64,000 nucleotides of DNA from a virus (taxonomy: Duplodnaviria; Caudoviricetes), in the IMG/VR virus record IMGVR_UViG_2758568729_000001, positions 64,001-128,000 of that record. The stretch is one strand, 5' to 3'. Of this stretch, positions 28,609 to 38,116 are shown piece after piece. The notes beneath the pieces are model-generated. The model was not told where the DNA came from and searched no databases. It saw only the letters and a program-made list of their open reading frames with translations. The position numbers and the translations under genes were made by a program. The first letter of the stretch is position 1. Every line of letters starts with the position of its first letter.

Positions 28609-29700
28609 TTACCCCCTGCTCGTGGTCGCGGTCAGGGACGGGCGGCTACTCGACGCGGTATGAACACCGGGCCGGTACTGCGGCAGGTGTTCCGGTACGG
28701 CGGCGGTGAGTACGCTTCCGGCGCTCAGGTCGGCGGCGGCGAAGTGGTTCAGCGCGGCCGTCGCCGTGAGGACGCTGCTCGCGGCGAGCGCGGCAGCCGC
28801 CCGCATCGTCGCCGTACCGGTGCCGCCGAGCGTGAAACTCGCGGACAGGTGGGCGGCGGCTTCCTGCTGCCGGGCACCAGCTGCGGTGAGGGTCGACGAT
28901 CCGACCAGCGCGGCGGCGGCGTACCGGGTCACGACCGGGGCGGCGGTCGCCGTGGTTGCCGACACCAGACCGGCGGCGGCCGGGACCACCCGGACCGCTG
29001 TGGCGGTAAGCGTTGAGGACGCGGCGAGGGCGGCGGCGGCAAGGTTCAGCCCGGCCAGCGCCAAGGACACGCCCTGCCGCTGCACGGTGGCCGACGCGGT
29101 CGCTACTCGTGTGCCGGTCGGGCCGGCGGCGGTCAGTTCCTGAGTGGCGATCAGCATCGTCGTGTTGCGCTGGGTGGTGCTCGTTGAGCACACGTCCACG
29201 CGTTCCGTTGTCGCCGCGTCGGCGGTCCAGGTGGCGGTGGTGTTGATGACGTTGAGAATCACGCCGTGGATTGCGACCAGCAGCGTTGACGTCGGCACGG
29301 GGGCTACCGACGGGGCGGTGACTACTGTGCCGTTGCTGTTCGTCTCGTCAACAGCAGAGGCGACTACAGTGGCGCTGGTGACTACCACGCACCCAATTGC
29401 GACCCGGGACGACGAATCGATCGTGAAGCTGACGCTGGCACCAACATCCCCGCTGGCCAGGGTTTTTGTCCACACGAGGAAGTTGCCGGAACTGGCTGTG
29501 TCGACGGTTGGGGTGCCGGGTAGGGCGGCCCAGCCGGCGGCGGCCATGTCGTTGGTCGGCAGCCCGGCGGAGATGGCCATGGCGAGTACCGCGAGGTGGC
29601 CGGCCTGCGCCCCCGCTCCGGCGTCCGGGAGGGTGATCGCTGCGGTGGTGCCGCCGAGGCTGCTGGCGGAGGTGGCTGCGACGTAGGTGGGTGCGGCCAC
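28609..29700 (-). CDS. Ser/Thr/Ala-rich fibre-like virion protein
   Basis: N-terminal beta domain plus six ~20-aa AAAxLxxxSxLTA repeats. Confidence 0.6.
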   Translation of the reverse strand: MAAPTYVAATSASSLGGTTAAITLPDAGAGAQAGHLAVLAMAISAGLPTNDMAAAGWAALPGTPTVDTASSGNFLVWTKTLASGDVGASVSFTIDSSSRVAIGCVVVTSATVVASAVDETNSNGTVVTAPSVAPVPTSTLLVAIHGVILNVINTTATWTADAATTERVDVCSTSTTQRNTTMLIATQELTAAGPTGTRVATASATVQRQGVSLALAGLNLAAAALAASSTLTATAVRVVPAAAGLVSATTATAAPVVTRYAAAALVGSSTLTAAGARQQEAAAHLSASFTLGGTGTATMRAAAALAASSVLTATAALNHFAAADLSAGSVLTAAVPEHLPQYRPGVHTASSSRPSLTATTSRG

Positions 29701-29714
29701 GGCTCAACCCCCGC

Positions 29715-30098
29715 TCAGGACAGGGCGAGGGTGAACGACCCGGCGGGGAACGACAGGGAGTCCCCGGCGCCGACGGTCTTGCTGGCGGTCAAAGCCCCCC
29801 ACCACAGGCGGCGGGGCGAACCAGCGGAGTCCCAGACTTCGACGCCGACGACCGTTGCCGCAGGCAGGCCGGCGAACGTCACGGCACCGGAGCTCGCGGA
29901 CGCGCCGGCCGCAGCTGCGGTCATGGTGATGGTTTGCCGCGTGTACGACCCGCCGGTGACTTCGGTGCCGGCCGCAGTGGCGGACCCGTTCGCGGTGACC
30001 AACGCGAGCCGGATCGGGGTGGTGGGCGCCGTGTAGGAGGCGGTGCCCATGGTGGCATCGAGCAGGCGGTTGGCTTCGGTTGTGGTCAGGGCCGGCAC
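29715..30098 (-). CDS. fibre-associated small structural protein
   Basis: EVTGGSYTRQ, VWDS and GDSLSFPAG motifs common in phage fibre adaptors. Confidence 0.65.
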   Translation of the reverse strand: MPALTTTEANRLLDATMGTASYTAPTTPIRLALVTANGSATAAGTEVTGGSYTRQTITMTAAAAGASASSGAVTFAGLPAATVVGVEVWDSAGSPRRLWWGALTASKTVGAGDSLSFPAGSFTLALS

Positions 30099-30169
30099 AT
30101 CGGCCCCCTTTCGCGGTGAGCCGATGTGGGTGGTGGTGAGGTGGGGCCGGCCTCGGTGGGCGTGGTCGG

Positions 30170-35545: not shown

Positions 35546-36181
35546 TCAGTGCCTCCTCGCGTCGTAGAGCACGGGGTGGACCACCGGCCACGGCGGAGAC
35601 AGGGGTGTGTCGAACAGTTCCGGGAACTGCTCGGGTGTGCGGGTCGCTACCAGCAGGTTCTGGCGGTACCAGTTCTCCACCCGGTCGTCGTTCCAGATCG
35701 ACCAGCGGAGCGCACCGGACACCGACCACCCGTGGGCCTTGAACCGGGTTACCCAGTAGTTGGGCCACTGCTCGTTGACGTGCCCCACACCGCCTTGGCC
35801 GGGGATGGCCGCCGAGAACAAGAGCGTCGGGGCCAGGTTGCACAGGTCGTCCACGAGGCTGTCGGCCCGGGACGGGGGAAGGTGCTCGGCTACCTCAAGG
35901 CACACCGCAAGGTCGAAACGGCCGTGCAGGTGCGCCGGGAGCGGCAGTGCCAGGTCGTGGGGGATGAACCGGTCGCCGAGCGGTGACCCGGTCACGTAGG
36001 CGCCGTCGACACCGATGACCTCGCACCCGTGGCCGGCGAACGTGTCCGCCCACCAGCCCTCACCGCAGCCGACGTCGATCACCGTGGCGGGTTTGACGAT
36101 GTCGACGACGACGGGCACCACGGCGGCGGCGGATGCCCGGGTGCCGGCCCGGATGGTGTCGTAGAACGAGCCGTTGTACAT
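35546..36181 (-). CDS. class I SAM-dependent methyltransferase
   Basis: VIDVGCGEG, FDLAVCLEVAEHL and PGQGGVGHVNEQ motifs. Confidence 0.9.
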   Translation of the reverse strand: MYNGSFYDTIRAGTRASAAAVVPVVVDIVKPATVIDVGCGEGWWADTFAGHGCEVIGVDGAYVTGSPLGDRFIPHDLALPLPAHLHGRFDLAVCLEVAEHLPPSRADSLVDDLCNLAPTLLFSAAIPGQGGVGHVNEQWPNYWVTRFKAHGWSVSGALRWSIWNDDRVENWYRQNLLVATRTPEQFPELFDTPLSPPWPVVHPVLYDARRH

Positions 36182-36870
36182 CAGTACCCGACTCCGATCC
36201 GCTGATGACCGACGTGTTCCACCCAAGGTGAGTCGCTGCGCGCGCCCCAGTAGCCGAACCGGACTTGGTCGCCCGGCACGGTGCCGAGCCCGGAGGAAAG
36301 GAGCCGGTTGGTGAAGTGGCCTTCGGACTGTTCCCGGTCCGGCCAGCCCACCTGAAGCAGCTCCGTTCGGTACAGGCAGGGGTTGGTGGTGAAGAACTGG
36401 CGGTGCTCCAACCACTGGTGCCCGTGATCGTCGTGGCAGGCGGTGTACGCCTCCGGGTGCTGTTCGACAACGCCCCCTGCGGCCCGCTCGGCTGTGTTCC
36501 ACGACTGCCGGCGGAGCGCCATCTGCACCAGGTGCGGGCGTTCGGTAAGCACTTCGGCCATCGCCGCCAGGTCGACCGGCCGGTGAAAGGTGAAGTCCTG
36601 CTCGATGTGGAACAGCCAGTCGGCGGTGCTGTGGGCGGCGAGGTGCGACCACGCTGCCCGGATCGCCCCACCGAACCCTTGCCGTGGGCCGCCGTTGATG
36701 TGCCGGAACTCCGGCCAGACGGCGGCGAGTCGGGCCCGGTAGGCGGCGTTGCCGGTGTCGTCGTACATCCACCGCTCGCTGATCGGCCCTTCGAGCGCGT
36801 CAAGCGAAGAGATGCACTGGGCGAGGTAGTCATCGCGGCCGTCGGTGATGACGAGGAGGGCGATGCTCAA
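36181..36870 (-). CDS. GT-A glycosyltransferase
   Basis: ITDGR..YL, YDD, HIEQDF, NPCL and VEHVG motifs. Confidence 0.75.
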   Translation of the reverse strand: MSIALLVITDGRDDYLAQCISSLDALEGPISERWMYDDTGNAAYRARLAAVWPEFRHINGGPRQGFGGAIRAAWSHLAAHSTADWLFHIEQDFTFHRPVDLAAMAEVLTERPHLVQMALRRQSWNTAERAAGGVVEQHPEAYTACHDDHGHQWLEHRQFFTTNPCLYRTELLQVGWPDREQSEGHFTNRLLSSGLGTVPGDQVRFGYWGARSDSPWVEHVGHQRIGVGY

Positions 36871-37466
36871 CCAAGCACCGCCTTCACGATCTGGTGGTGA
36901 ACGCGGTTCTTCTCGACCATCGACGGGGCCCGGTTGCGGCTGCCCCGCCGGACGTGCGCCCGGTACACCGCTCGGGGGATTGCTTCCACCGTCGCGCCGG
37001 CGGCCCAGCACCGCAGCCACAGCGACCAGTCCTCGTACAGGGGTTCGTCCCACCAGCCGCCGACGGCGCGGACCAGGCCGGTCCGGACGGCGGTACCGAC
37101 GACCAGCCAATTCCCGTGGGGCAGGCATCCGGCGTGGCAGATGTGGAGGTGGCCGGCGACCCTCGGCAAGCCCGGTGCGCCGACCCGGCGGCCGTGGACG
37201 TACCGGACGGCGGGGGCCCGCAGATCGGCGGTGCCGGCGGCCATGGCGTCGAGGTAGCCCGGCTCCAACTCGTCGTCGGCGTCGAGGTGCACCACCCATT
37301 CGGTGGCCACCTGGGCGAGCGCACCGTTACGGGCGCTGTGAAGGGAGTCGGCGTGGACGTGGACGACGGGAACACCGAACGCCTGCGCGGACGGTATCGC
37401 CCGTGTTTCGGCGAGCTGCCGCCACGACTCGTTCCCGTAGGTGCCGACGGCGATCGTCACGTCCAC
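36867..37466 (-). CDS. GT2 glycosyltransferase
   Basis: ARNGAL, HLDADDEL, VGGW and EDWSLWLR motifs. Confidence 0.9.
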   Translation of the reverse strand: MDVTIAVGTYGNESWRQLAETRAIPSAQAFGVPVVHVHADSLHSARNGALAQVATEWVVHLDADDELEPGYLDAMAAGTADLRAPAVRYVHGRRVGAPGLPRVAGHLHICHAGCLPHGNWLVVGTAVRTGLVRAVGGWWDEPLYEDWSLWLRCWAAGATVEAIPRAVYRAHVRRGSRNRAPSMVEKNRVHHQIVKAVLG

Positions 37467-38116
37467 AGGCGCCGCCGCCGGTTGAAGATGCTGCGCCCGG
37501 CCGCCATCCGGTGTCCCTGCTGGGCGTAGAGCGGATCCATCGGTGCTTTCCCGACGGTGGGGTGGAGGTGTTCGACCACGGCGTCACGCGCGAACGCCCA
37601 CGCCTTGCGGTGCTTGGCGGTTGCCACGGCCTCGTCGTCGCACCACTCGTGCGGGTAGCCCTCGTGCAGGAACTTGCCGGGCTCGTCGATGGTGCCGTAC
37701 TCGGTCACGTACTCGCGGGTGACGAGCATGTGGGTTGCGTGATCGCCCCGAAGGACCCGCTTGTTCGCGAGGTCGTTGGTGCCGACCACGCCGATGCCTG
37801 CTGCCAGCCGTTTGTGTGCGGCGTTGAGCCACCCGGGGTGGAACCGGAGGTCGTCGGCGGCGGTGAAGAGGAGTGGGGCGGTGGTCGCCCGAATCCCAAA
37901 ATTGATCTTCCGCTGGTAGTCGCCGCACCCCCGCCAAGGGACCGTCACCCGTCTCCGGCCGGCGGCGTCGATCTCGGCGTGAACCGCAACGTCGTCAGGA
38001 GACACCACGAACAGCACCTCGGCGCCCGGTGTCGTAGCGGCGATCGACTCCAGGAGTGGGGCAACCCGGTGGGGGCGGCCGAGCATCGGCACCAAAATGG
38101 CCACCTCAGCCCTCAT
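37457..38116 (-). CDS. GT2 glycosyltransferase
   Basis: ILVP..GR, INFG, AADDL, CDDE and VEHLH motifs. Confidence 0.85.
   Translation of the reverse strand: MRAEVAILVPMLGRPHRVAPLLESIAATTPGAEVLFVVSPDDVAVHAEIDAAGRRRVTVPWRGCGDYQRKINFGIRATTAPLLFTAADDLRFHPGWLNAAHKRLAAGIGVVGTNDLANKRVLRGDHATHMLVTREYVTEYGTIDEPGKFLHEGYPHEWCDDEAVATAKHRKAWAFARDAVVEHLHPTVGKAPMDPLYAQQGHRMAAGRSIFNRRRRLWT

Follow-up and report, generated by a model that had tools for sequence, protein, structure and literature searches.

Glycosylation of phage particles by phage-encoded glycosyltransferases (GTs) is established for the mycobacteriophages Che8, Corndog and Myrna (Freeman et al. 2023, as cited in passages of PMC11600133, PMC12363180 and PMC13445384). 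The Che8 enzymes O-glycosylate the capsid (passages of PMC13445384 and PMC11256854), and Che8 gp110 and Corndog gp38 are described, in a passage of PMC12363180, as essential transferases for capsid glycosylation. Corndog (cluster O) encodes an O-methyltransferase (gp35) and the tandem GTs gp36-38 inside the head operon; in Che8 (cluster F) genes gp108-110 precede the terminase gene, and the annotation of the M. abscessus prophage prophiGD91-2 lists four GTs along with two methyltransferases. Virion glycosylation of mycobacteriophages shields the particles from antibodies, and in Che8 and Corndog the capsid and tail-tube subunits reportedly carry the O-linked glycans at their C termini. To our knowledge, experimental proof of glycosylated particles is confined to a few mycobacteriophages. 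Here we describe a candidate system of this kind in a prophage of a Micromonosporaceae member, a soil bacterium. The analysed DNA, further referred to as the window, is the 64,000-nucleotide stretch at positions 64,001-128,000 of the IMG/VR record IMGVR_UViG_2758568729_000001; it corresponds to 8.22-8.28 Mb of a single 8.74-Mb contig and has a G+C content of ~69%. Downstream of the major capsid gene the window contains a cassette of five putative GT genes and one methyltransferase gene (34058-38116, minus strand), which is probably a virion O-glycosylation system of the Che8/Corndog type.

The genes were called by frame analysis of G+C at third codon positions (GC3) and by start-codon mapping. 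The six enzyme genes are co-directional, and their junctions are either overlaps of 1-10 nt or gaps of at most 17 nt. Of these six, the gene nearest to the capsid gene encodes GT-A (37457-38116, 219 amino acids (aa)), a GT2-like protein that matches Glyco_tranf_2_3 (PF13641, 3e-5) and phrog_14945 (1e-9) and has homologues in the cassettes of prophages G030, G248 and G280 (here and below, G and L numbers are our handles for genomes and loci). GT-B (36867-37466, 199 aa), also GT2-like, matches Glyco_trans_2_3 (PF13632, 9e-10), contains DAD at residue 62 and has a homologue in the G248 cassette (4e-53). The GT2-like GT-C (36181-36870, 229 aa, TTG start), similar to Glycos_transf_2 (PF00535, 9e-5) and to phrog_3047, annotated as galactosyl transferase (6e-9), contains EQD at residue 90 and has no relatives within the comparison panel. 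The fourth gene encodes a class I S-adenosylmethionine (SAM)-dependent methyltransferase (35546-36181, 211 aa; Methyltransf_23, PF13489, 2.7e-12) with GCGEG at residue 38, weakly similar to the gp78 methyltransferase of prophiGD91-2 (8e-5). GT-D (34750-35544, 264 aa), again GT2-like, matches Glyco_tranf_2_4 (PF13704, 2.6e-13) and PF00535 (2e-8), contains DAD at residue 91 and has a partial homologue in G220. The last enzyme, GT-E (34058-34762, about 231-234 aa), belongs to the family of Che8 gp109 and Corndog gp37 (phrog_1721, 2e-14; DAD at residue 71).

The matches of GT-E in phmmer searches include Corndog gp37 (3.5e-12), Che8 gp109 (7e-7), prophiGD91-2 gp74 (3e-15) and gp73 of Streptomyces phage Satis (2e-57), and members of its family are also found in the cassettes of G280, G325, G285, G248 and L135. 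In a blastn comparison of the cassette with phage genomes, the sole match was a short one, between GT-E and Streptomyces jumbo phages. Satis gp73 (L006, 11869-12576) is the closest GT-E homologue in the phage database, with 46% identity; it is situated among DNA replication genes of ~185-kb Streptomyces phages, and a second GT gene is located 11 kb away.

The Pfam and PHROG matches of the six enzymes are weak to moderate. GT-B (PF13632) and GT-D (PF13704) pass the Pfam cut-offs, and GT-A, GT-C and GT-E are below them; because several of these scores are just under the curated cut-offs, the enzymes are placed as GT2-like and not in precise families. None of the six enzymes has a predicted membrane span. 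The first-pass annotation had described this locus as a GT, GT, GT, methyltransferase, GT, GT block following the capsid gene and its small neighbour, and the GC3 frames, the mapped start codons and the Pfam and PHROG matches bear this out. Its statement that the enzymes carry DxD/ExD or GxGxG motifs holds for GT-B, GT-C, GT-D, GT-E and the methyltransferase, but not for GT-A, which has no DxD motif and only an ADD. The set had also been called unusually elaborate, which is mildly true, given the annotated set of prophiGD91-2 and the three GTs and one methyltransferase of Corndog. The absence of nucleotide-sugar genes noted at that stage is supported by a limited test, in which no relatives of the nucleotidyltransferases from related cassettes were found in the window.

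The cassette resembles that of Corndog in the combination of a methyltransferase with several small soluble GTs in the head operon beside the capsid gene, in the homology of GT-E to gp37, and in the ends of the capsid and tube proteins (...GS/...DS in Corndog, ...GS/...SS in the window). GT-E is likewise homologous to Che8 gp109 and prophiGD91-2 gp74; both phages share with the window Ser-ending capsid and tube proteins, mostly Gly-Ser, and the enzyme set of prophiGD91-2 is comparably large. It differs from the Che8/Corndog systems in its position after the capsid gene, in having five GTs, in lacking a transferase of the gp110/gp38 type and in the host family. The Corndog cassette, with three GTs, is upstream of the capsid gene, whereas that of the window is downstream, after a conserved 160-aa gene; the Che8 and prophiGD91-2 genes occupy the right end of the genome and immediately precede the terminase gene, and those of the window are between the capsid and adaptor genes. 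Corndog gp38 and gp36 have no sequence-level homologue in the window, and the methyltransferases differ. Moreover, the phage of the window, in contrast to Corndog, is temperate, has a capsid of a different family and resides in a Micromonosporaceae host. Comparison of GT-A to GT-E with Che8 gp108/gp110, Corndog gp36 and prophiGD91-2 gp73 by hhalign gave at most 34% probability, with shallow alignments. A gp110-like gene is present in the GS-tailed loci L072 and L056.

The C-terminal ends of the virion proteins were the main pointer to their probable modification by the cassette. The capsid protein of the window ends with ...ITDTEGS and the tail-tube protein with ...DDALSS. The respective capsid/tube ends are ...KTGS/...SDGS in Che8, ...LVGS/...KGDS in Corndog and ...SSGS/...EEAS in prophiGD91-2, and among GT-bearing prophages ...TAGS/...ASGS in G280 and ...GDGS/...VGGS in G285; the tube end ...LASGS is found in the GT-bearing relatives G280 and L135. 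The GT-less relatives have ...GALG/...LDEG, ...GTAS/...ALGD and similar ends. A GS capsid end was found in none of the 17 GT-less relatives of the family (16 loci and G093), and none of nine GT-less tube homologues ends with Ser, the ends being LAL, LAA, ALG, LGD or DEG. Among the 120 best protein-database homologues of the capsid, the end classes are LG (55), GS (38), AS (11) and Gly-Thr (10).

We surveyed 160 loci from IMG/VR and metagenomes (138 unique), with genome loci added, and scored each of them for the capsid end and for matches to a panel of 23 GTs, methyltransferases and sugar-nucleotide enzymes. GT genes were present at 9/9 loci with a T-x(1-2)-G-S capsid end and at 1/117 loci without such an end (Fisher test, 6e-13), or at 5/5 and 1/86, respectively, when only loci with 3 kb or more of sequence downstream were counted (1.3e-7), although these tests ignore the relatedness of the loci. 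Two ...ITGS ends at GT-less loci had been set aside after the fact; with both counted as GS, the numbers are 5/7 and 1/84 (p = 2.7e-6), and for any Ser end p = 0.0013. When a capsid tree was built with the last 8 residues left out, four changes were needed for the tail and five for the GT state, and all three well-supported independent contrasts agreed. One of them is between the window and its 79%-identical sister L035, which has the capsid end ...TGTAS and no GTs. The GS-tailed loci contain at least three cassette types (the G280 type, the Che8 gp110-like type and the GT-A/B type), and a Pfam scan of 14 open reading frames (ORFs) from four non-GS slots revealed no GT.

One further virion protein with such an end was seen in the G285 prophage (L033, G285:C2), where a 156-aa protein encoded just upstream of the GT cassette (7575-8045) ends with ...VGGS. 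This prophage thus has three tagged virion proteins, namely the 156-aa protein, the capsid and the tube.

We propose that the cassette is expressed late, during lytic growth, and that its products act in the cytoplasm, where host nucleotide-sugars would serve as donors for the soluble GT2-like transferases. An O-linked oligosaccharide would be built on the C-terminal serine tails of the capsid (...TEGS) and of the tail tube (...LSS), one of its sugars would be O-methylated by the SAM methyltransferase, and the assembled particle would then bear a glycan coat. The gene content, order and coupling, the GT-E homology and the co-occurrence of the serine tails with GT genes are observed; we infer the protein nature of the acceptors, the modified residues, the order of sugar addition, the sugar identities and the methylation target.

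Several observations weigh against this assignment. The argument for glycosylation is drawn entirely from sequence, and no glycan has been observed. No homologue of Che8 gp110 or Corndog gp38 was detected in the window at the sequence level by BLASTP, phmmer or tblastn. The three contrasts on the capsid tree are too few for significance (sign test, p = 0.25), the definition of the tail motif was refined with the data already in hand, and the survey recognised GTs through homology to the panel, with the Pfam check covering only 14 ORFs from four non-GS loci. In addition, locus L205 has a GT-A-like match and a non-GS capsid, and the capsids of the GT-bearing prophages G248 and G030 end with ...VKVV and ...LNQT, so the tail is not universal. 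The G248 and G030 cassettes may use another acceptor.

In both of these prophages the GT cassette directly follows the capsid gene (L026, G248:C177, 1375-2247; L031, G030:C195, 76-1113). Their cassettes include cytidylyl- or nucleotidyltransferases and a short-chain dehydrogenase/reductase.

The alternative that fares best is that the cassette glycosylates the adjoining Thr/Ser-rich fibre proteins, alone or besides the capsid and tube, which we consider unlikely. Five genes (28609-33993, minus strand), encoding proteins p178, p751, p339, p167 and p363, adjoin the cassette in the same orientation; their Ser+Thr content is 18-26%, compared to 8-10% in the enzymes, p167 ends with Ser, and in actinobacteria surface proteins rich in Ser/Thr are commonly O-glycosylated. 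However, p178, p751 and p339 are present without any GT in the Polymorphospora prophage G093, where their Ser+Thr fractions (0.21, 0.17 and 0.22) equal those in the window (0.20, 0.18 and 0.22). Conversely, in the metagenomic locus L135 a GT cassette of the G280 type is followed directly by the adaptor gene, with no fibre genes. Gp80-like genes (the type of p167) and p414-like genes are frequent in GT-less relatives. Because the GT-less G093 homologues are equally rich, the Ser/Thr richness is intrinsic to these beta-rich proteins and gives no glycosylation signal. The predicted acceptors are thus the C termini of the capsid and tube rather than the fibres, because the Gly-Ser or Ser tails, unlike the fibre genes, track the GT genes. 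From the earlier suggestion of a glycan on the capsid or head fibres we keep the virion-directed activity with the capsid as a likely target, add the tube and drop the link to the fibre genes. The description of the latter as very Thr/Ser-rich was overstated, as the fibre proteins are equally Ala-rich.

Two candidate markers were rejected in this analysis: Ser/Thr richness as a mark of glycosylation, since the GT-less homologues are equally rich, and p167 as a GT-linked target, since Gp80-like genes are common in GT-less relatives.

A second alternative treats the GTs as a moron that alters the host envelope in the lysogen or during infection, resulting in superinfection exclusion or receptor masking. 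Conversion of host surface glycans by phage GTs is well known, e.g. from gtr clusters in phages that infect Shigella and Salmonella, and the PHROGs database files these enzyme families under 'moron, auxiliary metabolic gene and host takeover'. Nevertheless, we found no membrane-spanning GT, flippase or polyprenol-linked component: of the gtr-type features (a membrane-embedded GtrA flippase, the bactoprenol transferase GtrB and a polytopic Gtr, encoded near the attachment site), none is apparent in the six enzymes, which lack membrane spans and matches to such Pfam families and are encoded in a structural operon. The genes have no promoter or terminator of their own and are translationally coupled within the head-neck operon; neither a sigma-70-like promoter nor a credible terminator was found in the 25-41 kb part of the window, in agreement with the late-operon placement made in the first reading of the sequence. 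The after-capsid position recurs in unrelated prophages, and an envelope function would not predict that the genes track the C-terminal tail of the capsid and tube. We therefore regard this explanation as quite improbable.

Hypermodification of phage DNA by the GTs and the methyltransferase as a protection against restriction, by analogy with the existing phage DNA glucosylation and arabinosylation systems, is the least credible explanation, with hardly any weight in our view: the early region does encode a dATP/dGTP pyrophosphohydrolase domain (PF04447), whose family is known from phages with replaced or modified purines, and Satis gp73, the closest phage homologue of GT-E, is among replication genes, but the cassette belongs to the structural operon, at least 17 kb from the replication genes and the pyrophosphohydrolase, no hydroxymethylase or base-modifying enzyme adjoins it, the five GT2-like enzymes are unlike known DNA glycosyltransferases, and the GTs are associated with a protein C-terminal tail. 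Both envelope conversion and DNA glycosylation, already disfavoured in the first-pass annotation, fit poorly because the enzymes are soluble, are coupled to the structural operon and follow the virion-protein tail in their occurrence.

Returning to glycosylation of the capsid and tube, we asked how the cassette is distributed among related phages. The capsid protein of the window shares 44% identity with its counterpart in Gordonia phage Dmitri and 35% with those of cluster P mycobacteriophages. In these phages a single small gene separates the capsid gene from the adaptor gene, and hence the 9.5 kb that lie in the window between its 160-aa gene and its adaptor gene are extra DNA. Genomes of the same family, among them Micromonospora, Polymorphospora, Plantactinospora and Dactylosporangium, contain approximately 20 prophages with these head and neck genes, each of which has a variable region of 3.5-7 kb at this slot. 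The nearest relative, from Micromonospora sp. NPDC006766 (capsid 78-79% identical), has four unrelated ORFs and no GT in the slot. The G093 slot contains p178, p751 and p339, and the G280 slot contains a GT1-like gene, a GT-A-like/FkbM methyltransferase gene, a nucleotidyltransferase/GT-E gene, a Gp80-like gene and a 414-aa gene. GT cassettes directly follow the capsid gene in same-family prophages with four unrelated capsid families; in G325 the cassette precedes the terminase gene, and the probable capsid ends with ...YPGS. The unpublished genomes G216, G065, G106 and G212 were counted in one tally only and underlie none of the statements made here.

The GT cassette and the fibre genes are two independently assorting cargoes, because G093 has the fibres without GTs and L135 has GTs without the fibres. 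In related prophages the GT clusters are therefore not bound to this fibre module. The hypervariable slot that the capsid and adaptor genes enclose seems to serve generally for the exchange of carbohydrate-active virion proteins, which makes the head-neck junction of this lineage a swap site for carbohydrate-active appendages.

The slots of further GT-less relatives contain a gene of the Spherulin4 family (PF12138, 3e-37; L085, 6707-7561) and a GH16 gene (2e-11; L210, 12354-13178). The Micromonospora sp. NPDC006766 prophage (L008) also has an IS605 OrfB/TnpB-type gene between the portal and protease genes (4708-5820, minus strand) and an HNH/zinc-ribbon gene between the tail terminator and tube genes (17858-18847).

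A broader hypothesis, which we put forward tentatively and with more doubt than confidence, is that virion glycosylation is a portable two-part system, consisting of a ...G-S tail on the capsid and tube and of interchangeable GT cassettes, that has spread beyond mycobacteriophages into prophages of Micromonosporaceae. Under this hypothesis, as the enzyme set of the window lacks the 'essential' gp110-type transferase, the glycan would be started by another GT, the product of the five GTs and the methyltransferase would be a branched or long methylated oligosaccharide of a kind undescribed on any phage, and it may act together with glycan-degrading fibres of the head or neck. The analysis yields a testable sequence rule: Gly-Ser (or Ser) ends of the capsid and tube, combined with a capsid-side GT cassette, predict glycosylated virions. 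By this rule, the system reaches a further actinobacterial family, in which the enzymes are largely different. If it is correct, glycan-coated phages could be predicted from genomes, the cassettes would be a source of new transferases that recognise a short C-terminal tag and are useful for glyco-engineering, and one could ask what purpose a glycan coat serves in soil phages that never meet antibodies.

The fibre genes most likely form a separate accessory module encoding appendages of the head or neck that bind or cut host surface glycans; their placement on the head or neck is read from gene position only. A shared N-terminal module of ~190 aa was recognised in p751, p339 and p363 with a hidden Markov model (HMM) derived from relatives that the p339 module has in the database; BLASTP comparisons between the fibre N termini were not significant. 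An NCBIfam scan gave only matches far below the cut-offs. The first gene of the module encodes p178 (33457-33993), a predicted beta-sandwich of a phage-only family (phrog_13135, 1e-20; AlphaFold2 pLDDT 91), also found in the GT-less G093, L057 and L060. No solved structure resembled p178 more closely than background (VIA Z at most 7.2; Foldseek E 0.02 or worse), and its matches in BFVD are uncharacterised viral proteins only.

Protein p751 (31186-33441) combines the N-terminal module (HMM, 5e-10) with an FN3 domain (fn3, 1.7e-10) and a predicted right-handed beta-helix. The model of its C-terminal part, confident for ~160 residues only (about 50-210), aligns only to the beta-helix class: the 50 highest-ranking VIA matches are without exception beta-helix lyases, hydrolases or tailspikes, including alginate lyase 6kfn (Z 13.8, the highest), the cyanophage Pam1 tailspike 7eea (Z 12.3) and Acinetobacter phage Fri1 gp49 6c72 (Z 12.2), although such Z values can come from repeat architecture alone. 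An atlas search gave a lead to Pel9A-like proteins (0.80). In contrast to phage tailspikes, which are encoded after the tape measure gene, p751 is encoded in the head-neck region, and its likeness to them is one of predicted fold only.

The next gene encodes p339 (30170-31189), in which the N-terminal module is followed by a PKD/Ig domain (PF22352, 1.4e-15). Protein p167 (29715-30098) is a Gp80-like small fibre unit (PF23140, 1.3e-23; phrog_240). Its longest ORF begins at 30218, and the likely start is GTG at 30098 behind AAAGGGGG, giving a protein of ~127 aa; the match spans positions 2-127 of the 128 in the PF23140 profile, and the size fits the range of 120-170 aa. In the PF23140 match and the small size p167 is like the podophage fibre units of GP4 (gp80), VP1 (gp11) and A1002 (gp40/41), with a marginal direct sequence similarity to a PDB entry (8jou, E 0.16). 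Proteins of the GP4 gp80 type stack as dimers into chain-like fibres (PMC13730344). The GP4, VP1 and A1002 fibres hang from the tail nozzle of podophages, whereas the p167 gene belongs to a siphophage and is located between the capsid and adaptor genes. The last gene of the module encodes p363 (28609-29700), composed of the N-terminal module (HMM, 1.4e-13) and an Ala/Thr-rich C-terminal part; the motif AAALxxSSxLTA recurs at residues 222, 262, 302 and 322, and the protein has no Pfam or PHROG match.

The remaining late genes belong to the same operon, which occupies the minus strand according to the GC3 frame analysis. The large terminase gene (43599-45215) is followed by those of a Mu-type portal (42158-43627), of a 710-aa head protein (40039-42171) and of a scaffold-like protein (39681-40037). 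The 710-aa protein combines a 2H/LigT phosphoesterase domain at residues 222-334 (PF13563, 4e-7) with a Mu-like protease/scaffold part, and the region matching it is split or otherwise arranged in relatives. Then come the genes for the major capsid protein (38615-39550, 311 aa; phrog_1650, 2e-68; PF25209) and for the 160-aa Ala/Pro/Glu-rich protein (38133-38615; phrog_2322, 'head-tail connector', 4.5e-9). The latter directly follows the capsid gene in all relatives, with GTs present or not, and has homologues in L008, L024, L025 and many further loci. Beyond the enzyme and fibre genes is p244 (27872-28606; phrog_17896), a probable head-to-tail adaptor with an N-terminal Ig-like extension; its G030 homologue matches phrog_17896 together with phrog_442, 'head-tail adaptor'. 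The protein is conserved in relatives, and its gene marks the downstream edge of the variable slot. It is followed by genes for neck proteins, the tail terminator, the major tail (tube) protein (26089-26649, 186 aa; phrog_117, 1e-27; PF25681), chaperones and the tape measure protein (20093-23599).

Outside the slot, the probable tail assembly chaperone (24853-25329, minus strand) has a Ser-rich C-terminal third and ends with ...GTQRGS, the third Gly-Ser end of the late operon; in the whole window, 9/86 called ORFs are Ser-terminal. An early gene on the minus strand (57055-58230) encodes the 391-aa protein with the PF04447 match (8e-25). A single tRNA-Met gene with anticodon CAT (45769-45845, minus strand) is located between the terminase region and the early genes.

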